A DNA stretch of 63,994 nt, counting the filler, from Jimgerdemannia flammicorona (lineage: Eukaryota), in NCBI GenBank assembly GCA_003990765.1. It is 3 parts of 3 records of this genome, joined end to end, with 100 filler letters (N's around TTAATTAATTAA, not from the genome) between each part and the next. Parts side by side here need not be neighbours in the genome. Positions count along the whole stretch, not along the records: positions 21,530 to 42,953 come from RBNJ01001457.1; 2 more parts are not named here. One strand, given 5' to 3'. The position numbers were made by a program, and so were the translations under genes. Under the pieces are notes generated by a model, which was not told where the DNA came from, searched no databases, and was given only the letters and a program-made list of their open reading frames with translations. Each line of letters starts with the position of its first letter. Within the stretch, counting starts at the first letter, position 1. Below, piece after piece: positions 13,401 through 43,416 of the stretch.

Positions 13401-13405
13401 TCTGT

Positions 13406-16499: not shown

Positions 16500-16860
16500 T
16501 CTTGCCTCAGTAATCAAATTTGAGTACTTGTTGGCTGATATCAAAAACTGCATTCATTTCCTTCATCCAGTTGGTGCCAAGAATCATGTCATAGGTGACA
16601 GCTTCAGTGACAACAGCTTTGGGGATAGAGAACTGAATGTGTCCAAGAGAGATGATGATATTTCATACTTCTCCAAGGGGTTGAGTTTGGGCTCCATCTA
16701 CTACTATGATGCTGAGGTTGGATGGTCCATCAATGGGCCATTGGAGGGTGTCCAAGAATCGTTTGACAATGACACAGATAGCTGTTCCTGTATCTATGAG
16801 GATTTTCGCTTTTTGTCCTCCAATATCTCCATATAGGTAGGTGCTGATATGTCTTTCAGC
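16500..16860 (-). pseudogene. Gypsy aspartic protease
   Basis: Minus-strand translation gives 'KILIDTGTAICVI' (~16770-16810) and 'YDMILGTNWMK' (~16560-16595). Confidence 0.85.
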
Positions 16861-18901: not shown

Positions 18902-18920
18902 TTCCCAGTTGTGCCCCCAA
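18902..18920 (-). promoter_or_regulatory. Gypsy primer-binding site, tRNA-Pro-like
   Basis: Minus strand reads TTGGGGGCACAACTGGGAA directly after the LTR end, resembling the tRNA-Pro PBS TGGGGGCTCGTCCGGGA with CpG decay. Confidence 0.6.
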
Positions 18921-18921
18921 A

Positions 18922-21039: not shown

Positions 21040-21429
21040 TAGTGCTCCGAACGAGTCAATCCGGATGGGATTCGGATGGATTCGAATTGGATTCGAATCA
21101 GATTCGAATTGGATTCGAATCCCATCCGGATGGATTCGAATCGGATTCGAATCGGATTCGAATCGGATTCGAATCAACCATTGTTTTGATTTCCAAATTA
21201 GACAATTAAATGTTTACATCAATAACTTGATGAATAATCATCCAAATTTGATGATCTTGGTGTCATTTGAAAGCCCTTAATAAGGCCTTTCTAATGATAC
21301 CAAGAACATTAAAATCGGATTACGTGTTGCCGAGATATTAAGGAAAACGTTCCATTTGACGAAATTTCCAAAATCGGCAAATCAAAGAATTTCCAAAATC
21401 GGCGATTCAGACGTTTTCCTTCATAACTC
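21040..21429. mobile_element. End of a probable DNA transposon/MITE (hAT-like TAGTG start) truncating Copia 2; 11-bp palindromic tandem repeats and hairpins
   Basis: Abrupt switch from AT-rich Copia RT to CpG-rich TAGTGCTCCG...; repeated GGATTCGAATC at 21068-21175; inverted repeats at ~21242-21319 and 21332-21350/21411-21429. Runs into the gap. Confidence 0.55.
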
Positions 21430-21529
21430 NNNNNNNNNNNNNNNNNNNNNNNNNNNNNNNNNNNNNNNNNNNNTTAATTAATTAANNNNNNNNNNNNNNN
21501 NNNNNNNNNNNNNNNNNNNNNNNNNNNNN
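21430..21529. other. Assembly gap with artificial TTAATTAATTAA six-frame-stop linker
   Basis: N44-TTAATTAATTAA-N44; identical structure at 42954-43053. Confidence 0.97.
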
Positions 21530-21848
21530 CCCCCCTCTCAGCCAGCTCTCCAGTCCCGCTCCCTGCCGACCCCCCTTCACCTTCTCCACAAAGCTCACCC
21601 TGCCTGACCCCTGACCTCCAGCTCCACCCCCTCCTCCACCGTGGCCCCCCGCCAGCAGGCCTCCCATACTTCCCCCCAAGCCGGGGCCTCTCCCCACTTG
21701 CTGCCAATCAAATGCTCCAGGGCCACCCTGCCCAGTACGCACCTCCGGATACTTGTTGGTCACCATGTTACTAGTAGCTTTTCTCCAGAAACTGTGTTGA
21801 AAGTGTTGCCAAAGTGTTGTGTAACCTGAATGTTACCGGAGAAAGATG
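21530..21848 (-). mobile_element. 5' end of a second LINE-like element of the same family as 1-1355
   Basis: ORF 'MVTNKY...GGGGG...RVSFVEKVKGG...LESWL' and the shared terminal motif (plus strand GTAACCTGAATGTTACCGGAGAAAGATG vs GTCACCCGAATAGTACTGGTGAAAGATG). Confidence 0.55.
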
Positions 21849-22358
21849 TGCCAAGGGTCATTCACATTTTAGTGAGAACATCTAAGAAAAGTAGCCATGA
21901 CATCCAAGGGCATAGTTTATTTTTGACATAAGACATGACCGATAACATATACATGTAGGACATGTGGCATAGAGATGAACGAAGCATATAGGCCGGAGTT
22001 CGAGGTGAAAAGATATATGCGTGTAAGCGCGTTTCATGGGTGATATTTAAATTATTGATATATATACTAGAACATAAGCTCAGTTTAATTAATGAACAAG
22101 GTGAAATTGTATAAATCAGAAAAAATTATATAATGTAATGTTTTATAAGACTTTTAAAATCGGTTTATCTGTAATATGCTGGTCATATTCTCCTCAGAGT
22201 GTATGCCGTTATGCTCTGTGCCTGTTCCCTCAATAAATGCTATGGCCTGTAACAGCAGTTGTAATCCAGTATCACAACGGGACGTCGCATTTTCTTGGTT
22301 CTCGGTCAGGGTGTGGTGGGCCTGTTCTTCGATTGGATCTGCAGGCGGCTGATATTGC

Positions 22359-23510
22359 TTAGTTTTGTATCGACATTAAAGTCTAAGTTAATGTTGATGT
22401 TGTTGCAGTTCCGCAAGTATAAGCTAAGCTTGCCATAATAATGAGAGTAGTTCCAGTATTTTGGACGACTAATAGCATAGATCTTCTGGATGCCATTGTG
22501 CTCCTTTAAATATTGCAAATAGCGGTTGACTCCATGGTGCTTTCTGTCACAAAACTGCATGACAATGTTACAAGATTGTTTGAGAGCCTTCCTCACGATC
22601 TTCTCATTTGAGGCGGACAGATTATTACTAAAACTGTCGATGATGGTAGGTACTGTCTCCGAAACAAGCTCTGTCATATTCTTTGCAAGAACCACACGAG
22701 ATGCCCCCAGAACATCGCTTGCCTTCCATCTTGCACCAATTGCATGCTTTACCCGGCCAAATTCTTTCCACTTTCTCCAAGGAGACATGGCGAGGACAGT
22801 ACTTATTCCTACGCAAACAGTCTGGGCATTGCTTGTATTTCACAGGTGGTGTGACGATGGAAGGTGTAAACGATGTTGGTGTCGCGATCAGTTATGATAG
22901 TTGGCGATGAACTTTGTGTAACTTCGTCTATTTGACAGACCATCCAAAGTGGAGCAGTATGAATGTCTTCGCCGAATATGTTGGAGTTGAGGAATGATTG
23001 AAGATCATCCTCCATGATTGTGTCGATGATATTGGGAACTCTATGGTAGTGTTGGTTAAATATATCAATTTCACTGAGAGTGACGCTATGATCAAGTATG
23101 TCGAGTTCATCTTTGTCGATATCTATGTGAAGGTCTTCGTTGAATAATTGGATCTTCATGGTGGTATTCTTCACCGAGTGCGCTTAGTGAGAAGTCGATG
23201 GTGGGATCAAAGTCAAGATTAATCGGAAGAGATTCAGCGATGCTGCCACCAGGTATGAAATTTTCGAAGTCGAAGTATGTGTTGAGGTCCTCTTCGACAA
23301 TTTTTATGCTGCTGTTATTGAGGATGTCATTAATTGCATCGTCCAAGGCGCTAGAATCCAGATCGATGTCGGATTGACCTTGTTGAGCGTCGCTAGCATG
23401 GCACTCCAGTTGCAATTCAAGTTGGGCTTGGAGGGCGTCCTCACAGTTAAAAAATCCTGGACCCATTTGACTGGTGCATAAGAGGCAGGAGGTGTTGGAA
23501 TGGGAAGATT
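22359..23510 (-). pseudogene. Zn2Cys6/ARM-tail family copy 1 (frameshifted)
   Basis: Pieces in four ORFs (23107-23715, 22809-23174, 22628-22843, 22306-22788) together reproduce the 26536-27747 protein, including 'CNWCKMEGKRCSGGISCGSCKEYDRAC'. Confidence 0.85.
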
Positions 23511-23913
23511 TTAATAGGATCAAGGTAGAAGTAGTGGAGGAAAGATATGATATTTGTTGGCGAGGTTGCAAGTCTTCGACTTTATAGCTCAAAGTGACGT
23601 TTGAAAAAGGCAGTGGTTGGACGTAACCACATTCTCCATAAAGCATGCCCCCAACTGAATGTCTTACGGGTAAGGACAACCCGACAACTTCCCGCTTACT
23701 TAGCAGTTTCATCATATCACACGGTAGGTTCCGTCAAAGAAAACGGCACATAACCACCACAATGATATATGTCATACGTTATTATTTGTGGCTTATGTTA
23801 TACGTCATCAATGTTACGTCACAACGCGTTATTTGCATTATCAATAAGTGCCAGTACGACCTTATAATAAGGCGCCCAAGATTTGAAGAATCGACCCAAA
23901 TAATCCTGTAGGC

Positions 23914-25506
23914 GTGCACTTGAACACGGACAGCGACAACTACACTCCGCACAATGCGACGCGACAAACCTGCATACGCACCCGCAACCTCCTCGATATG
24001 ACAGCACTCCCTCACTCCAACTCCTTCCATCTAATCTCGTTGACATCGCTCTGCGAGGACAAGACTATCTCGCAATCCGCATCGGAGCCGGAGAAGCTCG
24101 GAAAGCGACGGAGATCCGGCTCTGGCTCCGGCTCCGGCAGCGGCTCCGATAACGGCTTTGGCTCTTCCGTGTCGCACTCGTCCGACTCTAGTTCGCATCA
24201 CTCCGGTTCGGGCCACTCGGGGATCCAGGGGAACCTGGAGGAGGAGTGGGGCGAATTTGTACACCCGGCAGGGGTGAAGCCCAAACACAAGAGGATCGTC
24301 ACTTGGCTCGGCAAAATCGGGTTCACTGCCAAGGGCATCGTGTACGGCCTCATCGGCGGCATGATATACGCGTCTGCGAATAGGTTCAATTTGCCGGGAA
24401 TTGCGATCGATAATGGATCGCCTTAGGTAAGCGTGGTGCTTTGGGCTATCGTGTAAAGTGGCTCCGTGTAGAGATTAATCATGACTTATTGGTTTTGTTA
24501 TTCATGCATATTCACAGGAAGTTTTCATATTCATCGATGATATTCCGATTGGAACGCCTTTGCTTGTAATCATGTTCACCGGTGTACTCTCCTATGCCGT
24601 ATGACGATTGTGAGTTTACTAATCGCCTTGTAAATAGTCATTTCTTCCGCGGTAACCTATACTTACCAACCCTCCATCCTCTTTCATCTAACAGCTGGGA
24701 AACCATTACTGGCCAGGGTACTGACGCCCAATTCTCCGCCAAAAGATCTTCTTCCGCTACCGCCTTTCTCCCTTCGTCAGCGGCTGCGTCTACGCGGCTT
24801 ATTTCTATTACATTATCAAATTAATCCCCATGACGAGCCAAAGCCGCTCAGAAGCCGGCAGTCCGGGCTGCTTCCCGTCATGCTGGCGCGACTCTAGTCT
24901 TATTTAGCATAGCCTTCTCCATTGCGACGGTGACGCAGCTAATCAACATGCTGACGGTGGGGTGGCATCGTGACCTACGCGTTAGGCACTCACACCCGAT
25001 CAAGTACGGCGTCTACGCTAGGCCACGCCGGGTTCCTTGCGCGTGCGGGAGTGTCTCTGTTCGTAGCGGTGCTCATGTTCCGCGCATTGGCGGCACCCGT
25101 CGACTCGACCCATTCTACCGTCGCCAACGCGCTCAACGTTCTACTGCCCACGACCTCCGGGAAGGTATTCATGTTCGTGCTGGAGGTCGGGCTCATTTTG
25201 TTTGGCTTGTTCGCCATCCTGGATTCCGCGTACAAGTACTTCCCAATGCCGCCGCCGAGCCGGGAGCAAGATGGGAGTTTGGAAGGGGAGAGGAAGAGAC
25301 GAATGTGGAGGGCGGTGACAAAGTGGGCCGGGTATACGGATCAGCCAAAGTCGCCGTTCGAGATCGAAGAGGGCGAGATGTATATGGAAAAGGTCAAAAG
25401 GGAAAGGAGGGACAAAGTGGAAAATGGACATGAAGCAGATGAGGGATATTTTAGTTTTCGATCACGTGGGGATAACGAGAAGAGGTGGGTGAGGGATGGG
25501 GAGTAA
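23914..25506 (+). pseudogene. DUF1206-like multi-pass membrane protein gene, copy A (about 3 exons; disrupted)
   Basis: 'WLGKIGFTAKGIVYGLIGG', 'LGHAGFLARAGVSLFV', 'GKVFMFVLEVGLILFGLFAI'. Introns ~24427-24518 and ~24610-24694. GTG where copy B has ATG; TAG at 24424 where copy D has CAG before the GTAAG donor; frameshifts. Confidence 0.7.
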
Positions 25507-26535
25507 GACGTAAACCTCCAACAAGAATTGTTTGTACATTGCCAACTTTCTCAAATCTGACTCGAATACCAAACGGTCTTAGCTATCATGCATGGCATGT
25601 TTATTTATACTTATCTGGCAGCCCATTCCTTATTGTTAGCTACACCATTTCTCCAATTATTTCACCTTGAAATTTGGTAAATAAAAGTTGCATTTAATAT
25701 ATTTTTAATGAGCAGTCAAAAGTTATTGAATGTAAGCTCGAGAAAAGAACTACGAAAAAAAGGCCACTTCTCATGACAGTAGATTTTCTATGCAAATCCG
25801 GTACTGTAATACTCGATGAAATTCGAGGGTACAACGTCACTATCATAGTCTCTAAAGTCTGTCGAAGGTTTACAACTAGCCTCCGTCCCTGGGTTCCAAA
25901 GCTAGTTTCGTGGAACCCAAAAGTCTGGCCACGTGGCTTTCACATGGTAATAAGCGCAATGATACCAACGCCGCTTGAGCAGTATTCACCTCGATGTAAA
26001 CCAAGTCGACATAGACCAATGAAGATTTTGAATGCCTGACATTTGCTTTTGTGATAATTTAGAAATAGTTTAGGCGAGGAGCAAAGCTCAGACTGCCGAA
26101 CATTTATTAGTAGCATCGCTATAACGGTAAAGCTTGTTGGCGTAGTTTAATTTTGACATAAAGGCTTGATCGTGAACATGCATATAGCATAAACATATGT
26201 GACATACAACATAGGTATGAACGATGTATATAAGCCGGAGTTTGGTAAGATACAAAAGATAAAGAATCAACTATATGCGTGTAAGCGAGTTTCATGAGTG
26301 ATGTTATCAATAATTGGATTAGAATTTGCTCGAGCATAAGTTTAGGACAATAAATGAAGACAAATTTATATGTGAGGAGGAGAAGTATAACGTTTGTATT
26401 GTACATTGACTCAAATATTGAACACATGTAATATGAAGCTAGTTTTCTCAATAAACGTTATGGCTAATAACAGTAATTAGAGTCCTGTATCACGACAGGA
26501 CGCGGTTTCTTGGTCTTGCAGGCGGCTGATATAGA

Positions 26536-27747
26536 TTAGTTCTGTGAGGTCGATGTTGGTATTGGTGTCGTTGCAGTCTCGCAAGTTGAGATGAGTTCTT
26601 TGCGATAATATGAGTTACGCCAGTCGTTTGAATCGATATCATAGATCTTCTGGATGCCACCATTCTCCATTAGATATTGCCGGTAGCGGTTGACTCCATG
26701 GCGCCTTTGGCTACTGCTACCGAGCTGTATGATAATGCCATAAAGCTGCTCGAGAGCCCTCCATCCGATATTCTCATCTGAATTGGACAGATTGTTGCAC
26801 AAACTATCGATGACGGTAGGATAAGTACTGTCTCCGAAACAAGTCCTGTCATATTTTTCGCAAGAAGCACATGGGACGCCCCCAGAACATCGGTTGCCTT
26901 CAATCTTGCACCAACTGCACGCCTTGCCCGGCCCAATTCTTTTCACCTTCTTCAAGGAGACGTGGCGAGGACAGCGCTTCTTCCTACGCGAACAGTCCGA
27001 GCATTGCTTGTATTTCACAGTTGGTGTTGCAATGGAAGGTGTAATCGATGTGTGTGTCGCATCAATTTTTAGGTAAGGTGCCGAAAGAGAATTTTCGGTT
27101 ATAATGGTTGGCGATGGACTTTGTGTAACTTCGTCGACTTGATAGGCCAGCCAAGGCGTAGCAGTATGAATGTTTTCGCCGAATATGCTGGAATTGAGGA
27201 ATGATTGGAGATCATCCTCTACGCTCGCTTCGTCGACTTGACAGGTCATCCAAGGCATAGTAGTATAAAGGTCTTCGCCAAATATACTGAAGTTGAGATG
27301 ATCCTCTGTGACTGCTTCCGTGATTGTGTCGCTGATATTGGGATCTCCGTGGTAATGTTGATTTAATATATCCATTTCACTGCGAGTAACGCTGTGGCCT
27401 ATGTCGAGTTCATCTTTGCCGAAGAAATTGGGATCTCCGTGGTGGTATTCCTCACCGAGTGCGCTTATTGAGAAGCTGATGTTGATATCAGGGTCAAGGT
27501 TAAGTTGGAGAGGTTCAGCGATGTTGTCACGTATGCCGAAACGCGAGTCAATTTTATATTTTTCGAATTTGTCGAAGTCGAAGTATATGTTGTGGTCCTC
27601 TTCATCCAGGATGCTGGGATCTAGCTCGAAGTCCGATTGGTCTTGCTGAATGTGAGTCGCGTCGCTAGCATGGCACGCGTAGCAAAAAAAAGCTGGACGC
27701 ATCTGACAGGTGCAGGGGAGGCAGGTGGTGTTATAATTTGAAGTCAT
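26536..27747 (-). CDS. Zn(II)2Cys6 protein with acidic repeats, CxxCx6CxxH half-cluster and importin-alpha-like ARM tail, copy 2 (intact, intronless)
   Basis: Open frame with 'CSWCKIEGNRCSGGVPCASCEKYDRTC' (C-2-C-6-C-5-C-2-C-6-C). ATG at 27747 lies downstream of a minus-strand TATAAAA at ~27824-27830. Confidence 0.85.
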   Translation of the reverse strand: MTSNYNTTCLPCTCQMRPAFFCYACHASDATHIQQDQSDFELDPSILDEEDHNIYFDFDKFEKYKIDSRFGIRDNIAEPLQLNLDPDINISFSISALGEEYHHGDPNFFGKDELDIGHSVTRSEMDILNQHYHGDPNISDTITEAVTEDHLNFSIFGEDLYTTMPWMTCQVDEASVEDDLQSFLNSSIFGENIHTATPWLAYQVDEVTQSPSPTIITENSLSAPYLKIDATHTSITPSIATPTVKYKQCSDCSRRKKRCPRHVSLKKVKRIGPGKACSWCKIEGNRCSGGVPCASCEKYDRTCFGDSTYPTVIDSLCNNLSNSDENIGWRALEQLYGIIIQLGSSSQRRHGVNRYRQYLMENGGIQKIYDIDSNDWRNSYYRKELISTCETATTPIPTSTSQN

Positions 27748-29149
27748 TGTTTTGATAGAGGGATAAAGTGGAGGAAGGGTATGTTTTTGGTGAAGTTGCA
27801 AGTCTTAGACTTAGACGCCGACGTTTTATAGGCCTGATTTCTGAAGAAGCGGAAACGGGCCCGGTTTTGACTTGTTACACAGGCACAGGAACTCCGAACA
27901 CGAGAGCAGGTAAGTTGGTCAATTGCAATTAATGCAATTGAAGTGACTGCCTTTTTCACATTTCTGTGACCTGTCTGTTGCCTTCCGGTGCTGTGGTTGC
28001 TGTGATAGCACATCACATGGCACAACAATAAGGGCTGCGGTTTGGGAGTGTCAAAACTAGCGTGTCCGTACAGATAGATCGCTGAGGAGAGGAACCATTA
28101 CATGAACTTGAAGTGGGAAATAACCTGAAGTATATCCATAGAATGAAATCTCGTGTTTGTTCCATTGCTATAAAGTACCTTTGTTCGCAAGTAGCAAGTA
28201 GTATATACGCAGCTTACTGCAATGAGGCACAACGTCATGGCGCTATAGGCTTTAAGATCCGCGTGTGACTGGTAACAACAGTGAAATCTGATTTTGTTAC
28301 TTTGCGGAGATGAATGTTTTTCCTAGTTACTATTACAATGTACACTTCCCTTCGATATGCGAGGCACATGACTGTCACACAAGGTAGAAAAACGTCAATA
28401 GAAGCTTGCGAGGAGCTTTATGTAGAGGTTTGGATGCCAAAGTTTTGATTTATTTTCTCCGAGTTTGGCTCAGCGGGAACGTGATCAGGCTCGTACCGTA
28501 ATGCTGTGGGCGATTAGATGGCAAACATTGGCCTCCGCATGTCGCTTTGTTTCGTTTATTCTCCACATTAAAAATGCGCGATGTTTCGAACAGATATGTT
28601 GTGGAAGTTTGAACTATCTTTTTTCGATTCGAAATGTAGGACCACAACAACAAAAAATGATGATGACCGTTGCGTTACTGTCGAAAGTTATACAAAAATA
28701 AAATAAATAAATTAAAGTAAGAATACAGGGTGGGAAGAGGGAAAGAGGGAAGTTACATTTATACATAAGGCATGCAATACTACATTGTTGCTATTCTTAA
28801 CACCAGCGATCGCAACGTTCTGAATGGCTGTTCATTTTGTGCTTGCGGCATATTGACACAGAGCTCGCCGAACGGTCTACCACAAATGCCGAAAAGAATA
28901 GGTCTGATGAAGAAAGCCATGGAGACTTTGCAATATAATCTAGACTTTATAACCTCTGTCCTGTCCCAAGCATCGACATGTTGGAAACAATTCAAACTCG
29001 CAATACCACTGTCAAGAACTTTAACTCTGGTGATATGTCTTGTTGGAAGTCAAGGTTAGATTCTGATCGCTGCATTCTCAACATCGACACCGAAAGATTC
29101 TAAAACTCAACAAAATGCCATACTGCCTTACAATGGTGCTGAGAGAACA

Positions 29150-29530
29150 TGGATCCACTGTAGACTGAATAAGCAAACGTGGGCTGGAGTGGACGAGCGA
29201 ACATGGACTGGAGAATATGGACTGGACAATCGAACGGGACCAAACGAGCAAATGTGAACAGACGAACTTGGATTGAAAAATGGATTGCCGAACGTGGACT
29301 GCCGGACAACTGCGAACTGGAAAATGACCTGCCGAGAAAACTTGGACTGGACGAGAAAACATGAACTGTACGAACAAAAACCACAGTTTCGATGGTGACA
29401 TCACAGTTTTGATGACATCACAGTTTCGATGTGACATCACAGTTTTGATGACATCACAGTTTCGATGTGACATCACAGTTTTGATGGTGACATCAGTTTC
29501 GATGGTGTGTTCTTGATGATGACGTCACAG
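29150..29530. repeat. Degenerate TGGACTG-rich repeats followed by 16-19-bp GATG(GT)GACATCACAGTTT(C/T) tandem repeats; probable non-autonomous TE remnant
   Basis: About seven units visible at 29385-29510; repeated GAACATGGACTGG-type words at 29145-29370. Confidence 0.75.
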
Positions 29531-30357
29531 TCCGATCAATCGAAAACATGTCGCCCGTCCGACTAAGCCTCCGTTGTTACACAAAACGTTGCCAAGTCGC
29601 GAGATAGACTTCTCAAATTGCTCGTCTATCTCTGTATAATCCCAGCCATACACATAATTAAGTGGTTAAAGTTGAAGTCGAGCGTAAGCTCGAGAAAGAG
29701 AATGAAAGAAATTAAGAGAAGTGTTCAAGGTCACACTTAGATGTCACGGCTCGCGAGACAGCAGATTTCTAGCAATCCTATAACCAGGAAAATTCGAGCA
29801 GGCGACTGGTATACCGTACAGTAGCGTAGCTCTCAGAGTCCAGAATCTTTCAACTTTTAAACGTTTGTCGAAGGTTTAAAACCAGACTCTGTAACATGGT
29901 AATAAGCGCAAAGTAACTACGTCGCTTGAGAAGTATTCATCTCGGTGCAACATTTTCAAAGCCGAGTTGACAAACGTCTAATACATAGTCAAGCAGTCGT
30001 GACATCTAAAGGCATAGTTTATTTTGACGTAAGACATGAAGTATTAGTGACCGATAGCATATACATATGACATAAAGATGAACGAAGCATATAAGCCGGA
30101 GTTCGAGAAGAAATAAGGTGACAAAGAATCGACTATATGCGTGTAACCGCGTTTCATGGTAATGTTATCAAATAATTGGATTCTGCTCAATGAATTAACA
30201 GGACAAATTATGTATCAGGGAGGAGGTATATTACATTTGTAATTGTACGTCAATTCAGTATTGAAACATGTGTAATAAAAAGCCGGTTCTCTCAATAAAC
30301 ATTATTCTGTATCACGATAGGACGCGTTTTCTTGGTCTTGCAGGTGGCTGATATTTC

Positions 30358-31626
30358 TTAGTTCTGTTGGGACATTGAGGCCGAGGTTGGAGTCGGTGTC
30401 GTTGCAGTCTCGAAAGTTGAGATGAGACTTCCACGGTAATATGAACCGTTTGGGCAATTTACATCATAGATCTTCTGGATACCACCGTTCTCCATTAGAT
30501 ATTTCCGGTAGCGGTCGACTCCATGGCGCTTTTCGTCGTGGTCAAGAATTATGACAATGTAATAAAGTTGCTCGAGAGCCTTCCACGCGATCTTCTCATC
30601 AGAATCGGACAGATTATTGCACAAAGCATCGATAACGGTAGGATAGTTACCGTTTCCGATACAAGCCCTCTCGTATACTTTGCAGCTAATACACGGGATG
30701 CCCCCAAGACATCGCTTGTATTCCATCTTGCACCAGCTGCACGCCTTGTTCGATCCGACTCTTTTCACTTTCTTTAAGGAGACGTGGAGACGACAGCGCC
30801 TCTTCCTACGCGAACAGTCCGGGCATTGCTTGTATTTTACGGGCGGTGTCGCGATAGAAGGTGTAGTCGATATTTGCGTCGCACCAATTTTAGGCGAAGG
30901 TACCGGAAGAGCATTTTCGGTTATGATAGTTGACGATTGACTTTGTGGAATCTTATCGACTTGACAGGCAATCCAAGGCATAGCAGTATGAAAGTCTTTG
31001 CCGAATATGCTGTGGTTGAGGAATGATTGAAGGTCATCCTCCACAGTTGCTTTGTCGAATTGACAGGACATCAGGGGAGTAGCAACATGAACGTCTTCGT
31101 CGAATATGCTGGAGTTGAGGAATGCTCGGAGGTCATCCTCCATGCTTGCATCGTCGACTTGACAAGCCATCCAAGGCATAGAATTATGAAGGTCTTCGCC
31201 GAATATACTGGAGTTGAGATCACACTCTGTGTCTGATTCTCCAAATGTACTAAAGTTGAAAAATGATTGGAGGTCACCCTCCGTGATTGTGTCGCTGACA
31301 TTGGGATCTCCTTGGTGGTATTCCTCACCGGGGGCGCTTAGTGAGAAATCGATGTTGAGATCAGAGTCGAGGTTGATTGGAAGAGATTCGGCGATGCTTC
31401 CACTGGGTATGTCGAAATTCGAACCGATTTTGCCTTTGTTGAAATTTTCGAAGTCGAAGTACGTGTTGAGGTCCCCTTCGACAACGTTTATGCTGCTGTC
31501 ATTGAGGATGTCATAAATTTCACCGCCCAGGGCGCTGTAATCCAGAGTTGCGTCGCTAGCATAGCACTCCGGTTGCGATTCGAGTTGGGCTTGGAGGGCC
31601 TCACAGTTAAAAAAGCCTGAACCCAT
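30358..31626 (-). CDS. Zn2Cys6/ARM-tail family copy 3 (intact ORF, 422 aa)
   Basis: 'CPDCSRRKRRCRLH', 'CSWCKMEYKRCLGGIPCISCKVYERAC', three acidic 'SSIFGED..MPW.ACQVD' repeats, and the ARM-like tail 'LMENGGIQKIY'. Confidence 0.85.
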   Translation of the reverse strand: MGSGFFNCEALQAQLESQPECYASDATLDYSALGGEIYDILNDSSINVVEGDLNTYFDFENFNKGKIGSNFDIPSGSIAESLPINLDSDLNIDFSLSAPGEEYHQGDPNVSDTITEGDLQSFFNFSTFGESDTECDLNSSIFGEDLHNSMPWMACQVDDASMEDDLRAFLNSSIFDEDVHVATPLMSCQFDKATVEDDLQSFLNHSIFGKDFHTAMPWIACQVDKIPQSQSSTIITENALPVPSPKIGATQISTTPSIATPPVKYKQCPDCSRRKRRCRLHVSLKKVKRVGSNKACSWCKMEYKRCLGGIPCISCKVYERACIGNGNYPTVIDALCNNLSDSDEKIAWKALEQLYYIVIILDHDEKRHGVDRYRKYLMENGGIQKIYDVNCPNGSYYRGSLISTFETATTPTPTSASMSQQN

Positions 31627-32102
31627 TGGACTGGTATAAATAATGCAGGAGGTGTTGGAATGGGGGTTTTGATAGAAGGATCAAGCGGAAGAAAGGTAGT
31701 AGAGGAAAGGTATGATATTTGTGATATTTGTGGGCGAGACTTTATAGTGTAAAGTGGCATTTGAAAAAGGCAATCCATTGTTACACAAACGCGGAATTTC
31801 TGGCGGTTGACGGTTTTGGCATAAATTTTCGTTACCCGAGACTCCAGACGCTTATTACTATTTGGAGCCACGTGGCCAGACTTTTTGAAACCCTCGAATT
31901 TCCTCGATATCCCCATCGAACACAGTATTATTATCGGATTTGCATAGAAAGCTACTGAGTGTCGTGAGCCACTGTACATCAACTTAAGTATTGAAAAACA
32001 CGTAACAAGCTGGTTTCCTCAACAAACGTTATAGCTAATAACGGCAGTTGCAATTCTATTGACAGGAGGCGTTTCCTTGGTCTTGCATGTGGCTGATATC
32101 GC

Positions 32103-33150
32103 TTAGTTCTGTATCGACATTGAGGTCGAGGTTGGAGTTGATGTCGTTGCAGTCTCGCAAGTTGAGATGAGTCTGCTGCGATAATATGAGTGAAGCCAGT
32201 CGATCGGACTATTAATATCACGGATCTCCTGCTCCATTAGATATTTCTGGTAGCGGTCGACTTCATGGCACCTTTTGCCACAGAGCTTCGTGATAATATG
32301 ATAAAGCTGCCTGTGAGCCTTCCACGCGATCTTATCATCTGAATCGGACAGATTATTGCACAAACTATCGATGACGGTAGGATAGGTATATACTGTCTCC
32401 GAGACAGCCCTGTCACGTTTTTTGCAACTAGCACACGGGACACCTCCAAAACATCGCTTGGCTTCCTTCTTGCACCAACTGCACGCTTTGCCCAGCCCAA
32501 CTCTTTTCACTTTCTTCAAGGAGACGTGACGAGAACAGCGCTTCTTCCTACTCGAACAGTCCGGTCATTGCTTGTATTATTACAGGCGCGATGTTTGCGT
32601 CACATCAATTTTACGAGAGGGTGCTGAAAGAAAATTTTCGGTTGTGATAGTTGGTGATCGACTTTGTGTAACTTTGTTCGACTTGACAGGCGTAGCAGCA
32701 TGAAGGTTTTTGCTGAGTTGGAAATCTCCGTGTTAGTGTCGATTGAATCCCTCCAAATCAAGCTGTCGTCGAGTATGTCGAAATGAGAGTCGGGTATATC
32801 TTTGTCGATGTCCATGTGAAGTTGTTCGCTGAATAATTGGATGAAATTGGGATCTCCGTGACGGTATAGGTTGTATTCCTCGCTGAGTGAGAAGTCAAAG
32901 TAGAGGTTAACTTGGAGAGGTTCAGTGTTATCATTGAGTATATCGAAACGCGAGTCGATTTCGAATTTGTCGAAGAATGTGTTGGAATCTAGGATGCTGG
33001 GATTTAGATCGAAGTTGGATTGACCTTGCTGTATATGAGTTGTGTTGCTATCATGGCATTCCGGTAGCTGAGCTTGGAGGGTGGAAAAAATTTAGACGCA
33101 TCGGATTAATGCAGAGGAGGCAGGAGGTGTTGGAATTGGGTTTGATAGAT
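32103..33150 (-). pseudogene. Zn2Cys6/ARM-tail family copy 4 (frameshifts and deletions)
   Basis: 3' ORF 32103-32519 with a complete cluster; upstream fragments (32600-32815) closely match copy 5. Confidence 0.85.
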
Positions 33151-33646
33151 CAAGGTGTGAGATTTGACTAGACGCAGACGCTTTGGCCGAATTTCGTCGT
33201 CCGTAGCTGGGGTCGCGATGGAGGTGCTACATCCAACGAAACGGAGGAGCTACACCCAAATGAGGAAAAAGAGGGGGGGCACTCTGAGTCTATCTCGCGA
33301 CTTAGCGGCGTTTGTGTAACAACGGAGGCTTAGTCGGTGACTGCAGTTTCTGTGTGTTTTTATATCCCCAACTGAAGTAAGGACAACCGGTCAACTTCCC
33401 GCTTATTTAGCAGTTTCATCAATTCACATGGTAGGTCTCGTTAAAGAAAACGGCACATACTCTTGGTGGCCCGCCACATTTATTGAAGAGAAGATAAAAA
33501 AACTCGTATCTTTTCCGTTTGCTGGCAATTTCAAACACCCAAACCTCATGCCTCCCTAGCATACTCCTGCAGGGCGCCCAAGATTTAAAGAATCGAGAAG
33601 AAAAACGACCATGACGCAAGAATACACCCCACCTAATCATGTAGGC

Positions 33647-34836
33647 ATGCACCTGAAGACGGGCAGCGACAACAATGCCAACATTTTAACGGTGACGGCG
33701 ACGTCCACCTCCATCAACTCGCATCTGAACCTCAGTAACAGCAATGATCACGACACGGCGAACCCCATACGCACCCGCAACCTCCTCGAATGATACCGCC
33801 CCCTCACTCCGACTCCTCCCATCTAATCCCATTGACGTCGCTCTGCGAGGACAGGACTATCTCGCAATTCGCATTGGAGCCGAAGAAGCTCGGGAAGCTG
33901 CGGGGGTGAAGCCCTAGCACAAGGTGATCGTTTCCTGGCTCGGCAGGATCGGGTTCACCGCCAAGTGTATTGTGTCGACCTCATGGGCGGCATGACATGC
34001 GCGTCTGCGAATAGGCTCAATTTTCCAGCGTCAGGTAAGCGTGGTGCTTTGGGCTACCGTGCAAAGTGACGAGGTGCCGAGTAATAATGTCTTATTGGCT
34101 TCGTTACCCATGGGTATTCACAGGCATATTCATCGATCGGAACGCCTTTGCTTGTAGTTATGTTCGTCTGTGTACTCTTCCATGCCTTATGGCGACTGTG
34201 AGTTCTAATCGTCTTTTAAACAGAGTACATCTTCCGCGGTAACCCATTCTTACCAACCCACTTTTTCTCTCTTCGTCAGTGACTGCGTCTACATGGCCTA
34301 TCTCTACTGCATTGTCAAGTTAGTCCCCATGGCGCGCCAAAGCCGCACAGAAGCCGGCAGTCCGGGCTGCTTCCGTCCTGTTGGCACGATTCGGTTTATG
34401 TCATACGGGGCTAGTCCCATTCGGTGTAGCCTTCTGCATTGCAGCTAATCAACGCGCTGACGGTGAGGTGGCACCGTGACCTGCGCGTTAGGCATTCGCA
34501 TCTGATGATAAGTACGGCGTCTACACGTTAGGCCAACGCCAGGTTCCTCGCGCGCGCGGGGATGTTCCTATTCGTAGCGGTGCTCACGTTCCGCGTACAA
34601 ATACTTCCCAACGCCGCCTCCGAGCAGGGAGCAAGATGAGAGTAGAGAAGGGGCGAGAAACACGGGCATGTGGAGGAAGATGACGAAGTGGGCCGGGCAT
34701 ATACGGATCAGCCAAAGTCGCCGTTTGAGATTGAAAAGCACAAGAAGTATATGGAAAAGGTGGAGAGTGAAAGGAGGGATAAAGTGGAAAATGTCCAGGG
34801 ATTAAGTGCTCGATCGCGTGAGGATAACGAGAAGTA
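33647..34836 (+). pseudogene. DUF1206-like gene copy B
   Basis: Colinear nucleotide similarity to 23914-25506, with stops, frameshifts and internal deletions. Confidence 0.75.
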
Positions 34837-35759
34837 AACCTCCAACAAGGATTGGCTGCGTGATGTGCATACTTTACCGACTTTCCCAGATCTGACTTGA
34901 ATACTGAATATTCTTAGCCATTACATGGCATATGCTTATTTATACTTATCTGGCACCCTTCCTTACCGTTAGCTATGCCAGTTCTCCAATTATTCCACCT
35001 TGAAGTTTGGCAAATAAGTTACATTAATATATTTTTAACGAGCGGTTAAAAGTTGAAGTCGAGTATAAAGCTCGAGGAAGCCCACACTTAGTACCAATCC
35101 TATAACAATTAGGGATATCGAAGTACGGTAACTCCTGGGGAGGATTTAAAATTGGCATCGACAGGCTATGATTGTCGAAACTGTAGGATATAAATAGCAT
35201 CATTTTCGCCACTCGCCACTCAACCATCGGCTCGGGACACCTTAAACAAATACAAACAACCGGCCCCTGTGCAACTCTGATTCTATAACCGGTGGCATCC
35301 GCTGTTCCACTCTCCTTGCGGATACCGTGGGACGCGTGTCATTGCAACGTAAACAAATACTCTCATTAGTAATTTTATAACCGGTAGCATCCGCTGTTCT
35401 GTTCTCCTCGCGGAAACAGCTGAACACGTCGAGTCATATCACAAAATTGTGTCCGACATCATACATCAGATGGGAATAAAAGGGCAACGGTAGATCAGGC
35501 AGTCATCCATTACATTTGCTAGTGTGGTATGTAAACAAGTTCTGTTCTTCAGTCGTTACTGCGCAAGCTGCCCCGAGTGGCTAACTTACTATTTAAGGAA
35601 CTTCCGTCATCGGGCCCCAATGAATTCAGCAGTGCATATGACCATAAGATGGTCCGCCACATGATGAAAAGTCTCGCAAATCTTAGTCACGTGTTTGAAT
35701 TTCAGTCTTCCCTGACTCCCATTCCAAACACCCATACCTCAAGCCTCCGATGCCCCTAC

Positions 35760-36591
35760 CCAGCATGTTCATGCTCCAACAGCTCGCGTTTCAATGTGTC
35801 CACCTTCATCGGCTCGCATTCTGATCTCTGTAACAGCAACAATCACGACGCACCCGCAACCTACTTGAATGACACCGCTCCCTCACTCCGACTCCTTCCA
35901 TATGATTCCGTTGACATCGCTCTGCGAGGACAAGATCATCTCGCTCGGGAAGCGACGGGGTCCGGCTCTGGCTCAGGCTCCGTGTCGTACTCGTCCGACT
36001 CCGGTTCTCAACATTTCGGCTTGGGCCACTCGCACATCCAGAGGAACCTGGAGGAGTGAGGCGAATTCGTGCACTCGGCAGGGGTGAAGCCCAAGCACAA
36101 GAAGATTGTCACCTGGCCCGGCGGGCGCGGCATGACACACGCGCCCGCGAACAAGCTCAATTTTCCGGGGACTGCGAACGATAATGGTGCTTTGGGCTAT
36201 CGTGTGAAGTGACGAGAATACATTCCGTGCCGAGATCAATCGTGTCTTATTGGTTTTGTTACTTCCACATATTCACAGGAAGTTTTCATATCAATCGGTG
36301 GCTTTTCGATCGGAATGTCTTTGCTTGTACTCATGTTCATTTCTGTGCCGTATGGCGATTGTGATTCTGTTTGGCTTGTTCGCCATCCAGAATTCCGTGT
36401 ACAGGTACTTCCCAAAGCAGCCGCCCAGCAGGGAGCAAGATGGGAGTAGGGATGGAGGAGGAAGAGACAAGAAAACCAGGCATGATAGCAAAGTAGGCCG
36501 GGTATACGGATCAGCCAAAGTGGCCGTTCGAGATATTCGATTGCGTGGAGATAACGAAAAAAGAGGTGGATGGGGATGGAGGAAGAAGTAA
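35760..36591 (+). pseudogene. DUF1206-like gene copy C (large internal deletion)
   Basis: 'PHSDSFHMIPLTSLCEDK' and 'ILFGLFAIQNSVYRYFPKQPPSREQDGS' match copy A; the central part is missing. Confidence 0.75.
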
Positions 36592-37487
36592 ACTACCAAT
36601 AAGAATTTTTGCCTGCATGATGTGCATACTTTACTGACTTTCCTAATCTGACTCAAATACCGAATAATCTTAGCCATTATATATGGTATTTGCTTATCCA
36701 TACTTATCTGACTTCCGCACCCTTTCTTATTGTTAGTTACGCCATTTCTTCGATTATTTCGGTTTGAAGTTCGACAAATAAAGCTATGTTAATATATTTA
36801 AAAGTTGACATTGGGTGTAAGGAACTACAAACCCATACTTGGTAAGCTTAGACGTCACGGCTCACGACGCTCAGTAAAATTTCTATGCAAATCCGATAAC
36901 AATTAGGAATATCGAGAAGATTCGAGTGTATGGTACAATAGCGTAACTCCCAGAGTCCAGTCTCTAAAGTCTGTCGAAGGTTTAGAACTTCTGGGTTCCG
37001 AGTTTTGTGGGACCTAAAAATTAACCACGTGTGCAACGATAACGACGCCGCTTGAATAGTAGTCACCTCGATGCAAACCAAGTTGACGTAGATTTTGAAT
37101 GCATGGCATTTGCTTTTGTGATAAGTTGGAAATAATTTAGGCAAGCAGAGCTCAGGCTGCCAAACATCTAATAGTAACGCTGCCGCTTGTTAGCATAGTT
37201 TAATCCTGACATATATTTAGCGACCAATAGCATAGACATATGGAAATACGGCACAAAAGTGAACGAAGTATATAAAAGTCGACTATATACATATGTATGC
37301 ATGTTTCATTGCTCGAGCACAAGACGAAATTATGTATCAGGGAGAAGGCATATTACGTTTCTATTGTACGTCAATTCGAATATTGAAACATACATATGTA
37401 ACAATATAGTAAGATGCCGGTTCCCTCAATAAGAGTTATGATTAATAACGACAGGGCGCGTTTCCTTGATCTAAATATCGCCTAGTT

Positions 37488-38567
37488 CTATATCGACATT
37501 GAGGTCGAGGTAGGAGTTGGTGTTGTTGCAGTCTCGCAAGTTGAGATGTGTCTGCTGCGGTAATATGCGTGAAGCCAGTCGATTGGACTATTGATATCAT
37601 GGATCTCCTGGGTGCCACTATGCTCCATTAGATATTTCTGGTAGTGGTTGACTTCATGGCGCCTCTCGCCACAGAGTTTCGTGACAATATGATAAAGCTG
37701 CCTGTGAGCCTTCCACGCGATCTTATCATCTGAATCGGACAGATTATTGCACAAGCTATCGATGATGGTAGGATAGTTACTGTCTCCGAGACAAGCCCTG
37801 TCATGTTTTTTGCAACCAGCACACGGGACACCTCCGGAACATCGTTTGGCTTCCTTCTTGCACCAACTGCACGCCTTGCCCGGCCCAACTCTTTTCACTT
37901 TCTTCAAGGAGACGTGACGAGGACAGCGCTTCTTCCTACTCGAACAGTCCAGGCATTGCTTGTATTTTATAGGCAGCATTGCGATGAAAGGTGCAGTCGA
38001 TGTTTGCGTCGCACCAATTTTAGGAGATGCCGAAAGGAAATTTTCGGTTGTGATAGTTGGCGATCGACTTTGTGTAACTTCGTCGACTTGACTGGCCATC
38101 CAAGGCGTAGCAGCATGGTGGTCTTCGCTGAATATACTGGAGCTGATCTCCGTGGTAGTGTTGATTGAATCTCTCCATATCAAGCTGTCACTGAGTATGT
38201 CGAAATGAGAGTTGGGTTTATCTTTCTCGATGTCCATGTGAAGATCTTCGCCGAATAATTGGATGTAATTGGGATATCCGTCACCGAGTGAGAAGTCGGA
38301 GCCGAGGTTAACTTGGAGAGATTCAGTGTTGTCATTGGGTATATCGAAACGTGAGTCGATTTCGAATTTGCCGAAGTATGTGTTAAAATCCAGGATTCTA
38401 GGATCCAGATCGAAGTTGGATTGACCTTGCTGGATATGAGTTACGTTGCTAGCATGGTACTCCGGTTGTGATTCGAGTTGGACTTGGAGGGAGTCTTCAC
38501 CGTTAAAAAGAGCTCGACACATCTGACAGGTGCAGAGGAGGCGGGAGGTGTTGGAATGGGAAGACAT
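37488..38567 (-). CDS. Zn2Cys6/ARM-tail family copy 5 (intact ORF; an alternative in-frame ATG lies at 38636)
   Basis: 'CLDCSSRKKRCPRH', 'CSWCKKEAKRCSGGVPCAGCKKHDRAC', ARM-like tail 'IIDSLCNNLSDSDDKIAWKA'. Confidence 0.85.
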   Translation of the reverse strand: MSSHSNTSRLLCTCQMCRALFNGEDSLQVQLESQPEYHASNVTHIQQGQSNFDLDPRILDFNTYFGKFEIDSRFDIPNDNTESLQVNLGSDFSLGDGYPNYIQLFGEDLHMDIEKDKPNSHFDILSDSLIWRDSINTTTEISSSIFSEDHHAATPWMASQVDEVTQSRSPTITTENFLSASPKIGATQTSTAPFIAMLPIKYKQCLDCSSRKKRCPRHVSLKKVKRVGPGKACSWCKKEAKRCSGGVPCAGCKKHDRACLGDSNYPTIIDSLCNNLSDSDDKIAWKAHRQLYHIVTKLCGERRHEVNHYQKYLMEHSGTQEIHDINSPIDWLHAYYRSRHISTCETATTPTPTSTSMSI

Positions 38568-38747
38568 TGTTTTGATAATAGAGGGATCAAGTAGAGGAAA
38601 GGTATGATATTTGTTGGTGAGGTTGCAGGTCCTCATTTTATACTAATTTTGGCGGAACCGGTCGTTACACAGATATGTTACCTGGCTCGGCTGCTTGACC
38701 CTCGCAATTGGAAATCATGACGTCTCCCTGTGAGCGGTCCGTTCGCA

Positions 38748-39900
38748 TGACATGTGACGGAGACTGCGAACGATAATAAATTGCCTCAGGTAAGCCTAAG
38801 CCTCCGTTGTTCACAAACGTCGAGCGAATTGCTCGTCTATCTGTCTATCGTGTAAGTGGCGAGAATACACTTCTTGCTGAGATTAATCATGTCTTATTGG
38901 TTTCGTTACTCATGTGCATTCACAGGGAGTTTTCATATTCATCAGTGGCTTTCCGATCGGAACACCTTTGCTTGTAGTCATGTTCATCTGTGTACTCTTC
39001 TATGCCGTACGGCGATTGTCAGTTTCCTACTCGCCTTGTAAATAGTCAAATATCCCTTACTCACCAACCCACTATCCTCATTTATTTAACAGCTGGGAAG
39101 TCATTACTAGCTAAGGTGCTGATGCCCAATTCTCCACCAAGAACCTCTTCCGCTACTGCCTTTCTCCCATCGCCAGCGACTGCGTATACGCGGCCTACAT
39201 ATCAAACTAATCTCCGTGGCGTGCCAAAGCCGCACAGAATATAGCAGTCCGTACTGCTTTCGTCCTGCTGGCCCGACTCTGGTTTAGGTCGTACGGGGCT
39301 AGTTCTACTCGGCGTAGCCTTCTACATTGTGACGGTGACGCAGCTAATCAACGCGCTGAAGGTGGGGTGGCACCGCGACCTACGCGTTAAGCACTCGCAC
39401 CTGATCGTCAAGTAAGGCGTCTACACGCTAGACCACGCCGGGTTCCTCGCGCGTGCGGGGTGTTCTGTTCGTAGCGGAACCCGTCGACTCGACGCAATCT
39501 ACCGTCGCCAACGCGCTCAACTTGTTACTGCCAACGACAACGACTACGGTCGGGTTTGGGCACTCTGTTTGACTTGTTCGCCATCCCGAATTCCGTGTAC
39601 AAGTACTACCCAACGCCACTGCCGAACAGGGAGCAAGATGGGAGTAGGAATGGGAGGAAGATGACAAAGTGGGCCAGGTATATGGAGTAGCCAAAGTCAC
39701 CGTTCGAGGTCAAGGAGGACGAAAAGTATATGGAGAGGATGGAGAGGGAAAGGAGGGACAAAGAGGAAAATGGGCATGGGGCGGAGGGGGGATATTTCAG
39801 TTTTCGATCGCGTGGGAATAACGAGAAAAAGATTGATGGGGAAGGCGAAAGAAGTAAACCTCCAACAAGAATTGGTTGCCTACGTGATGTACATATATAC
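38748..39900 (+). pseudogene. DUF1206-like gene copy D (5'-truncated)
   Basis: Matches copy A from the end of exon 1 onward; 'MERMERERRDKEENGHGAEGGYFSFRSRG'. Confidence 0.75.
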
Positions 39901-40659
39901 ATTACTGTCTTTCCCAGATCTGACTCGAATATCCAATAATCCTAGCCATTACATATGGAATATATTTATCTATACTTATCACCCTTCCTTATTGTTAGCT
40001 ACGCCATTTCTCTAGTTAGTTTCGCCTTGAAGTTTGACAGATAAAAATCACGTTAATTATTTTTAACGAGCGGTTAAAAGTTGAAGTTGGGACGAGGTCC
40101 CCGGATTACAAAGCCAGTTTCGTGAAACCCGAAAGGTCTGGCCACGTGGCATTCACATGGTAATAAGCACAACGATGCCAACGTCGCTTGAGCGGTATTC
40201 TCCTCGGTGCAATACATTTCATACTCAAGTTGACGTAGACCATTGAAGATTTTGAATCGACGACATTCGATTTTGTGATAAATTAGACGAGAAGCAAAGC
40301 TCAGACTGCCGAAGATCGTAACGCTGCCGTAGCATCTAAAGCTTGTTGGCGTAGTTAATTTTGACATATAGACATGGTTACATTTGGCGATCGATATTAG
40401 ACAGACATAGAGATGAACGAAATATATGAGATAACAAAAAATCTACTTTATTAAATGTATGCATGTTTCATTGTTCGAGCACAAGATGAAATCATGCATC
40501 AGAGAGAAATATTACGTTTCTATCGTATGTCAACTCAGGTATTGAAACACATGTAATAAGAAACTGGTTTCCCTCAATAAAAATTATGGCTAATAACAGC
40601 AGTTGCAATCTCGTATCGCGACGGGATGCGTTTTCTTGGTTCGATGGGATCTTGCAGGT

Positions 40660-41280
40660 GACTGAGGTCGATGATGGTACCGGTGTCGTTAAAGTCTCGC
40701 AAGTTGAGATGAGTTCGCTGCGATAATATAAACGAAGCTGGTCGTTTTGACAATCGATATCATAGATCTTCTGGATGCCATTAGATATTGCCGGTAACTG
40801 TCAACTCTATAGCACCTTCCGTCCTTAACAATGTAATAAAGCTGCTCGAGAGCTTTCTCTGCACTCTTCTCATTCGAGCCGGACAAATTATTGCACAAAC
40901 CGTCGATAACCAACAAGCCTTGCCTTGTTTTCGCAAAGAACACACGGGATTCCTCCGAAGCATCGCTGGGCTCTCATCTTACACGAACTGCACGCCTTTC
41001 CCCGCCCAACTCGTTCCACTTTTTTTAAGGAGGCGTGGCGAGGACAGCGCTTCTTCCTGCGTGAACAGTCCCGGCATTCCTTGTATTTCACAGGCGGTGT
41101 GGTGATGATGGAAGGTGTAGTTGATGTTTGCATTGTATCAACTTTAGGAGAAGGTTCCACCTTCTTCAGGGAGGCGTGGCGAGGACAGCGCTTCTTTCTA
41201 CGCGAACACTCCAAGCATTGCTTGTATTTCACAAGCGGTGTTGCGATGGAAAGTGTAGTGTTTGCGTCACATCACTTTTA
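40660..41280 (-). pseudogene. Zn2Cys6/ARM-tail family copy 6 (5'-truncated; half-cluster duplicated)
   Basis: Two tandem 'KYK.C..CSRRKKRCPRH' modules, then 'CSSCKMRAQRCFGGIPCVLC'; frameshifted ARM tail. Confidence 0.8.
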
Positions 41281-41809: not shown

Positions 41810-42953
41810 ATGCTCCTTTCTCCGCTACCTTACCGGTCACAAGGTTTGGTAGGTGACCTTCCGAGTCCCCTTTCCCCTAATATTACCCCCTCTACCTCGG
41901 GTTGGTTTGCTGTGCCTGCAGGGGCATGGTGGGAGGAGGGCAATGGTGATGAGTTGCCCCTTTATCGGTGTCGGATCGGTGCTTCCTCCACTTTTTCGCA
42001 GATTCTGGTGCCTTCAGCTGCGTCTGGGGTGTACCCGTTTTGGTGCGGCGCCTTCTTCCTTTTGTCGTCGCCAACAAGGAGTTGTCTTGGTGTGTCTCGG
42101 GCTACGTAGGGAGTCAGCCGACCTTGGGCATCAAGTGCTCAGTGTAGGTTACCTGCAGGTCCTCGGTGCCTGTGGTGGGGCCCTCTGGCTTTGGCAAGCT
42201 TCCCGGCAAGTGCGGTTCTGGTGTAGGTGACTGCTTTTCAGGTGTTGTCGGGATGGGAGGGGAGATGGCCATCACAGATAGATGGAAGGGCGATTACGGT
42301 GAACCAGTAGGATGCCAGGCTGGGGGCAGTCGTCGGGGCTGGGGCAGGTGCTGCTTCGGTGGGGCCTTTTGATTGGTGTGGCACGGTTAGGTGGTAGGTG
42401 TCACTCTCGGCTTCTTTTGGCGGGTAGCGGGGTGAGGCCCCAGTTGTCAGGGGGGGTCAGGGGGCCTGAGGCTACCCATTTCAGGCGTCTTGGCTGCACT
42501 CAACTGGAACCGGGAGCTGACATGGCAACGTGATCGAGGCCCACAGGCTTGAGTAGTGGGGTATTGGGGGTTTCCTCCCGCCTCACGTGTAAGTCCTTTA
42601 CTCACCTCGACTGGGAGAACCAGGCCCTACCCACCATGTTGTGCTTTGATGAGGGTTTTTTCTTTGCCTGTCATTCTCTTTGGGGTGGCAGGGGCTATTC
42701 TATTTGGCTTGGGTATGGCCTTGTACATATGTTGGGTTCTCAGGCGTACACTTTCAGTTGTTGGCATATGGTTGGGTTCCCTGGTGGTAGAGAGAGCATG
42801 GTGCACAGAATGAGGTGCGGGCTTATCAGCCCTGCTGCGCCTGGCATGGTCGAGCTGCTGGACAATAGCTAGCCTAGGTTAATGGGGGGGCAGTGCTTGG
42901 TGGGTGGTGGGGGAGGGTTTTGGCCTATATAGTCTAGGTTCCCTTCCAATAAA
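41810..42953 (-). mobile_element. Probable retroelement fragment (possible LTR from 42637 to the gap, PBS-like TGGTGGGTAGG, Pro-rich leader)
   Basis: Compositional break exactly where similarity to 28400-28925 stops. Minus strand reads ...CACAACA then TGGTGGG at 42636. No recognisable enzymatic domain. Confidence 0.35.
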
Positions 42954-43053
42954 NNNNNNNNNNNNNNNNNNNNNNNNNNNNNNNNNNNNNNNNNNNNTTA
43001 ATTAATTAANNNNNNNNNNNNNNNNNNNNNNNNNNNNNNNNNNNNNNNNNNNN
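42954..43053. other. Assembly gap with artificial TTAATTAATTAA linker
   Basis: Same N44-linker-N44 structure as 21430-21529. Confidence 0.97.
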
Positions 43054-43416
43054 AAAAAAAAAAAGGACGCGTGCATGGGGCACAATAAACAAATAGACAA
43101 GATTACGAGGCAGACGCGCGCACAGAGCAAACAAGAATGCGAGCGACAATAACATCAGTGGTAGTGGCAATCTCTACGCAGGCCAAGCCAGGTTCCCACG
43201 ACACGTGCACGCTCAAACGCGTAATCATCTCTCCATGTTCCGAAGCCAAGCGAGATCAACACGCCATGCGTCCCCCCTCCCATAAAAAAGGCCTGAAAAT
43301 AATCATCTCGATTGATACCCATATCCATTGTCCTCGCAAATCTCTCTCACCAAACATAAAAGTCACCGTGTTGTCCCATAAAGATTCATTCACACTTGCG
43401 TCAACAGTGACACACC

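Follow-up and report, generated by a model that had tools for sequence, protein, structure and literature searches.

The 63,994-nucleotide stretch of Jimgerdemannia flammicorona DNA analyzed here (the window; three joined parts of assembly GCA_003990765.1, with positions 21,530 to 42,953 from RBNJ01001457.1) carries six tandem copies of a gene for a small protein in which a cysteine module of the zinc-cluster type lies late in the chain and is followed by a short helical tail. We consider it probable that this is a segmentally duplicated array, belonging to J. flammicorona or to a species very close to it in the Endogonales (Mucoromycota), of a lineage-restricted small Zn2Cys6-type regulator, with purifying selection acting on three of the copies and a tail that resembles armadillo (ARM) repeats.

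With the 422-amino acid (aa) copy as the tblastn query, six minus-strand paralogues were recovered between 22.3 and 41.3 kb (E 2.5e-26 to 0), and no zinc-cluster copy was found outside the array in the whole window (Table 1). As a preliminary description of this DNA had reported, three of the copies (c2, c3 and c5) retain an intact open reading frame (ORF), and the tail peptide quoted in that description was located in c2. The ORFs of c2, c3 and c5 are uninterrupted, and the neighboring genes (PCNA, a Na/sulfate-symporter homologue and a DUF1206 gene) are spread over several ORFs, which fits the presence of introns in those genes. The earlier observation of the array was upheld at the positions given.

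The three intact proteins share the same order of parts: an acidic N-terminal part, a basic cysteine module of 64 residues and a final 95 residues. The N-terminal part (223-263 residues, net charge -16 to -37) contains 33-aa acidic/hydrophobic repeats. The module has a net charge of +12 to +15 and follows the pattern CX2CX6C-X17-CX2CX6CX5CX2CX6C, with its nine cysteines and their spacing (2,6,17,2,6,5,2,6) identical in all three intact copies. In c2 it occupies residues 245-308 of 403, leaving ~95 residues on its C-terminal side. Basic runs within the module look like putative nuclear localization signals (NLS). The last 95 residues are neutral and comprise an ~80-aa helical tail and, at the very end, a Thr/Ser/Pro-rich stretch.

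The Pfam Zn_clus consensus consists of six cysteines arranged as CX2CX6CX5-12CX2CX6-8C, and the last six cysteines of the module are spaced 2,6,5,2,6 in all three intact copies. The same pattern is kept in c1, while c4 is without the last cysteine and c6 is truncated. Single sequences matched Zn_clus (PF00172) below its 21-bit cut-off, at 14.8-15.9 bits (E 0.015-0.033) for three 159-aa C-terminal pieces, which counts against a Zn2Cys6 assignment; when the full proteins were searched, only c2 among the intact copies matched, at 11.9 bits. No other Pfam family passed its curated cut-off for the three full-length proteins (E<=1), and no middle-homology-type region was reported. A module profile (A5), built from five window copies and the distant relatives P0006 and P0007, was then searched against the PDB, and all eight matches at E<=1 were Zn2Cys6 DNA-binding domains. 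These included PUT3 (E 1.3e-4 and 1.8e-4) and LAC9 (E 7.9e-4) as well as Pho7, Cep3, PPR1 and LEU3. Given that all of the PDB matches belong to this class, we accept Zn2Cys6 homology and take the module, as judged from its sequence, to be a genuine Zn2Cys6 domain. The placement of such a cluster late in the protein, as claimed in the preliminary description, was therefore borne out.

The first three cysteines of the module form a separate element, a CX2CX6C(X2)H half-cluster on the N-terminal side of the Zn2Cys6 cluster. The distant relatives P0006, P0007 and P0008 have kept this element, and it occurs in duplicate both in P0004, described below, and in c6, where the first half-cluster segment occurs twice and the tail is divided between two frames, with stops. 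No Pfam family passed its cut-off when the module pieces were searched, and we know of no described family for this motif.

An exhaustive HMMER search with the full-length alignment against 1.84 billion representative proteins returned six matches at E<=0.001, one of them at <=1e-10 and none at <=1e-30. All six fell inside profile positions 230-326, which correspond to the cysteine module, so that no tail-bearing relative was found in this collection. The best match, P0004 (122 aa), is 66% identical to c6 and has the same duplication of the half-cluster, indicating that a related copy exists in another sample. The matches P0006, P0007 and P0008 cover the composite module of half-cluster and cluster (E 8.7e-7 to 6.3e-5); P0008 is RUS25576.1, a 600-aa J. 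flammicorona protein annotated as 'Zn(2)-C6 fungal-type domain-containing protein'. When these three proteins were used in tblastn back to the window, all six copies were matched. They have the same composite module as the array proteins but neither the tail nor the acidic repeats, the matches ending at profile position <=322, and in RUS25576.1 the module is located near the N-terminus, whereas it is found late in the array proteins. Another distant HMMER match, P0009, comes from Aspergillus; this small Zn2Cys6 protein scores 30.1 bits for Pfam Zn_clus and so passes its cut-off. We also noted P0005, a 600-aa protein with about five long repeats, each with a 'YKSCSDC'-type motif, which matched the family profile at E 1.6e-7; this match is probably repeat-derived or spurious.

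Searches of other kinds were negative. Word-based searches found no homologue of the c3 protein at E<=0.001 among proteins of near lengths, and none for the tail alignment at E<=10 among 7999 candidates of longer lengths. Scans of metagenome contigs yielded 168 (A3) and 179 (A1, the tail alignment) pattern matches, none of which was confirmed in either scan, and a narrow search of open-access text for literature joining 'Zn2Cys6' with 'Arm_3', or with 'armadillo' and 'domain architecture', found nothing. The earlier statement that no described family combines a Zn2Cys6 cluster with this tail holds in the protein and open-access literature searches made, and within the collections searched the tail-bearing architecture appears to be confined to the J. 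flammicorona array.

Weak purifying selection acts on the three zinc-cluster copies with intact ORFs, and the other three are decaying. In pairwise comparisons, c2, c3 and c5 are 73-79% identical in nucleotide sequence (21-27% divergence), with ratios of non-synonymous to synonymous change (dN/dS) of 0.48-0.56, and synonymous change exceeded non-synonymous change in all three pairs (Fisher p 1.6e-6 to 4.6e-4). These ratios, together with the synonymous excess, indicate that the minus-strand frame is a coding frame under weak constraint. The same data can be read as those of a decaying relic, a cluster of duplicated pseudogenes dying out in repeat-rich surroundings, of which c2, c3 and c5 would be the last to be lost, being the youngest, and would be neither expressed nor functional. 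Three of the six copies are already pseudogenes, a dN/dS near 0.5 denotes weak constraint, and the value for the tail core rises to 1.14 between c2 and c5, all of which tell against a regulator maintained by selection; a relic would also fit the absence of the array proteins from a 15-billion-protein collection that includes annotated J. flammicorona proteins and the reverse-transcriptase ORF upstream of the array. However, ORFs of 382-422 codons have been kept through 21-27% nucleotide divergence, the synonymous excess is significant for every intact pair, and the nine cysteines have been retained with their spacing in each intact copy. We consider a relic unlikely and favor purifying selection, albeit weak, on the intact genes.

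The boundaries of the repeated unit bear on how the family was amplified. When the first unit was compared with the window using blastn, the copies were found to share the ORF, ~100-150 bp upstream and ~300 bp downstream. Several units also include a co-duplicated DUF1206 gene, divergent from the zinc-cluster gene, for which ORF 24955-25506 matched Pfam DUF1206 (PF06724) with a score of 27.2 bits (cut-off 26.2; E 4e-6). What is repeated in the array is therefore a pair of genes, of which some units now lack one. The shared flanks and the co-duplication of an intron-containing gene point to segmental tandem duplication by unequal exchange. The preliminary description had instead raised a retro- or transposable element-mediated origin, to which the 5´ and 3´ flanks and the intron-containing DUF1206 gene within the repeat unit are opposed. 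Uninterrupted ORFs next to divided neighboring genes, and a reverse-transcriptase ORF in the same window, are what might be expected had the family arisen or spread by retroposition or as transposable-element cargo. Retrocopies carry the transcript only, however, and here non-coding flanks and the DUF1206 gene are shared in the same relative order. In addition, the copies are all adjacent and on one strand, and no copy was found elsewhere in the window. Retroposition or transposon cargo thus seems highly improbable, and segmental duplication is the mechanism we retain. Two blocks of an 8-bp-periodic repeat (family D5), up to 94% alike, flank the whole array at 21407-21537 and 42931-43061, possibly at the limits of the duplicated segment.

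The preliminary description had also proposed that the end of the proteins derives from the C-terminal ARM tail of importin-alpha, a proposal on which comparisons of the tail with the PDB and Pfam point both ways. In its favor is the identity of the top PDB match. By phmmer, residues 313-380 of the c2 protein aligned with residues 371-442 of Neurospora crassa importin-alpha (4rxh_B; E 1), and the c3 tail alone gave the same top match at E 0.26, with 21 of 60 residues identical as printed. For a 5-row tail profile, 4rxh_B was the sole PDB match at E<=10 (E 0.14). A 7-row profile that included the c6 pieces gave seven matches at E<=10, three of which were importin-alphas aligned at the equivalent last-ARM region (N. 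crassa importin-alpha, E 0.16; human alpha-6, 0.75; human alpha-7, 1.2). The similarity is collinear over ~65 residues in 4rxh_B (371-442), human alpha-6 and human alpha-7. In addition, clusters of Arm_3 and Arm proteins occur among the language-model neighbors of the c2 tail (score 0.75-0.77), which the tool grades as a lead only.

Every importin-alpha match to the tail has E > 0.1 and is not significant (0.14-1.2 for the profiles), and the c5 tail alone, the most diverged, found no importin-alpha in the PDB and gave no usable Atlas match. None of the seven tail pieces matched Pfam Arm (PF00514) or Arm_3 (PF16186) at E<=10, nor did any of the three intact tails in a separate search, a null result obtained with HMMER filters that remove most matches above E ~0.1; a weak match to a HEAT-type family (Vac14_Fab1_bd, E 0.085) was seen in only two of the seven. 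Structure prediction was of poor quality both for cluster plus tail and for the tail alone (AlphaFold2 predicted local distance difference test, pLDDT, 40.8 and 56.0, respectively), with four helices predicted for the latter. With this low-confidence tail model, Foldseek returned no PDB match at E<=0.001, and the best 50 rows of a wide VIA-align search were generic helical-repeat proteins, without importin-alpha among them, at Z 4.6-6.9, which lies below the noise level stated by VIA-align for helical models. The tail also evolves fast (dN/dS 0.48-1.14). The E-values, the c5 result and the missing Arm and Arm_3 matches weigh against ARM or importin ancestry, on which the fold searches with this model were uninformative. 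Separately, the idea that the tail is an ordinary post-cluster region such as that of P0009 was rejected, with an hhalign probability of 0.2% and BLASTP similarity that lies in the cluster.

Our reading is that the tail would be a helical module similar in appearance to one or two repeats of the ARM/HEAT type, and we put its descent from importin-alpha, as a question of sequence ancestry, at about even odds. The features that define importin-alpha are an importin-beta-binding (IBB) domain and a set of ten ARM repeats bearing an NLS-binding groove. The array proteins have only ~80-95 residues after the cluster and lack both an IBB domain and ARM repeats 1-8, which bind the cargo; their N-terminal 223-263 residues have no Arm or IBB match in Pfam. 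Since the IBB domain and most ARM repeats are absent, the array protein falls outside the importin-alpha family and at most carries a fragment of one of its members.

A stronger version of this idea is that the fungus captured the two C-terminal ARM repeats from its importin-alpha gene as the tail, together with their transport-linked function. The C-terminal end of importin-alpha contacts CAS/Cse1, and a tail that kept this contact, or one with nucleoporins, would tie the nuclear residence of the regulator to the importin-alpha recycling route. The captured repeats would then couple the protein directly to nuclear transport, for instance by export that depends on RanGTP or by docking to nucleoporins, and the chimera would subsequently have been amplified and be diversifying in Endogonales. 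The best PDB match always falls on the same C-terminal region, E-values improve from single sequences (0.26-1) to profiles (0.14-0.16), a trend often seen with true homologues, and the nearest language-model neighbors include clusters of Arm_3 proteins. Nevertheless, no E-value below 0.1 and no Pfam Arm or Arm_3 match was obtained, importin-alpha was not recovered with the c5 tail, the fold searches were uninformative, the tail changes rapidly, and two ARM repeats isolated from a solenoid of ten may be unable to fold or bind by themselves. We regard capture with a retained transport function as quite unlikely, more so than the relic discussed above, and both its transport linkage and the consequence for nuclear residence as equally doubtful.

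For the segmentally duplicated regulator that we favor, the data show the copies and their condition, the Zn2Cys6 homology, the signal of selection, the duplicated unit and the taxon, and all of the roles assigned to the array proteins are ones we infer from sequence. The repeat unit is ~3-5 kb, with the zinc-cluster gene on the minus strand and, in some units, an added plus-strand gene for a putative DUF1206 membrane protein. The zinc-cluster protein would most likely be a sequence-specific transcription regulator with an order of parts that is the reverse of that of Gal4. Its acidic N-terminal part could serve as an activation region, and the basic module, with its half-cluster, NLS-like runs and binuclear cluster, could provide both DNA binding and nuclear targeting. 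The ~80-aa tail, predicted to form four helices, may act as a module for protein-protein contact or dimerization; a homodimer prediction for the tail scored 0.13 against a mark of 0.32.

The remainder of the window contains repetitive sequence and the housekeeping neighbors PCNA, a Na/sulfate-symporter homologue and a beta-eliminating lyase fragment (Table 1). Two J. flammicorona entries match the PCNA exon with 100% identity, the next best match being 90% identical, which assigns the window to this species or one very close to it. The block at 10000-20000 that holds the reverse-transcriptase ORF is strongly skewed between strands, with an AT skew of -0.15 to -0.31, and a retroelement is probably located there, upstream of the array. 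Positions 2001-10000 are low in G+C (29-34% compared with 42-52% elsewhere), and at 1-1300 the plus strand is very C-rich (the first 2 kb have a GC skew of -0.42), with long open frames without a Pfam match. A 1248-codon open frame on the minus strand at 43417-47163 is of low complexity and rich in Ser, Pro and Arg, with two cysteine/histidine-rich patches, and no Pfam family matched it at E<=0.01.

Table 1. Features of the window, with positions counted along its full length.
Feature	Position	Strand	Description	Details
Copy 1 (c1)	~22306-23466	-	Pseudogene; every domain recognizable, over three reading frames	tblastn pieces in frames -2/-3/-1/-2 and ORF fragments
Copy 2 (c2, P0001)	26536-27747	-	Intact ORF, 403 aa	Cysteine module 26824-27015, tail 26539-26823
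Copy 3 (c3, P0002)	30358-31626	-	Intact ORF, 422 aa	Cysteine module 30646-30837, tail 30361-30645; start is an internal conserved Met
Copy 4 (c4)	~32103-33082	-	Pseudogene	In-frame stops, frame change, 4-aa tail deletion, last cluster Cys gone
Copy 5 (c5, P0003)	37488-38636	-	Intact ORF, 382 aa	Cysteine module 37776-37967, tail 37491-37775; tail is the most diverged
Copy 6 (c6)	40657-41265	-	Truncated pseudogene, only C-terminal part	At least 2 frameshifts, and stops; repeat family D3
CX2CX6C(X2)H half-cluster	26968-27015, 30790-30837, 37920-37967	-	17 residues N-terminal of the Zn2Cys6 cluster	
Intragenic tandem repeat, 99 bp (33 aa), 2.7 copies	30956-31218	-	Acidic N-terminal part of c3	Repeat families D4, D10
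DUF1206 gene	23957-25724	+	Over at least 2 ORFs	Further copies/fragments ~33751-35054, 35848-36534, 38879-40082
Reverse-transcriptase ORF	13406-14431	-		Pfam RVT_1, E 4e-29
Na/sulfate-symporter homologue	47854-50191	-	Over several ORFs	
PCNA	54998-55558	+	Housekeeping neighbor	
Beta-eliminating lyase fragment	57192-57731	-		

If the genes are expressed, the array would represent a very narrowly distributed, undescribed branch of the fungal zinc-cluster regulators, in a lineage of plant symbionts that diverged early. This branch would be distinguished by a reversed order of domains, the additional half-cluster and a tail that was found nowhere else, and young tandem families of this kind are candidates for lineage-specific regulation. 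Should the tail truly come from importin-alpha, it would be a rare reuse of a transport-receptor fragment in a transcription factor. The firm part of the picture is ordinary, a fast-evolving orphan Zn2Cys6 family of which half has decayed, and the importin-alpha capture is suggestive but unproven.

Set beside known zinc-cluster regulators, the array proteins share with the Zn(II)2Cys6 factors of the Gal4/Put3/Lac9 type the six cysteines in CX2CX6CX5CX2CX6C and a basic segment. Unlike those factors, they have the cluster ~100 residues from the C-terminus, after an acidic region, preceded by an extra conserved half-cluster, and they are small (382-422 aa); their single sequences fall below the Pfam cut-off, and Pfam reports no region of the middle-homology type. 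A C-terminal Zn2Cys6 cluster has a precedent in Ume6 of Saccharomyces cerevisiae, going by the title of Anderson et al., 1995 (cited in PMC8224235). The array proteins share this placement of the cluster with Ume6, a likeness of cluster type alone. By the profile evidence, the array family belongs to the fungal Zn2Cys6 regulators as an unusual variant.

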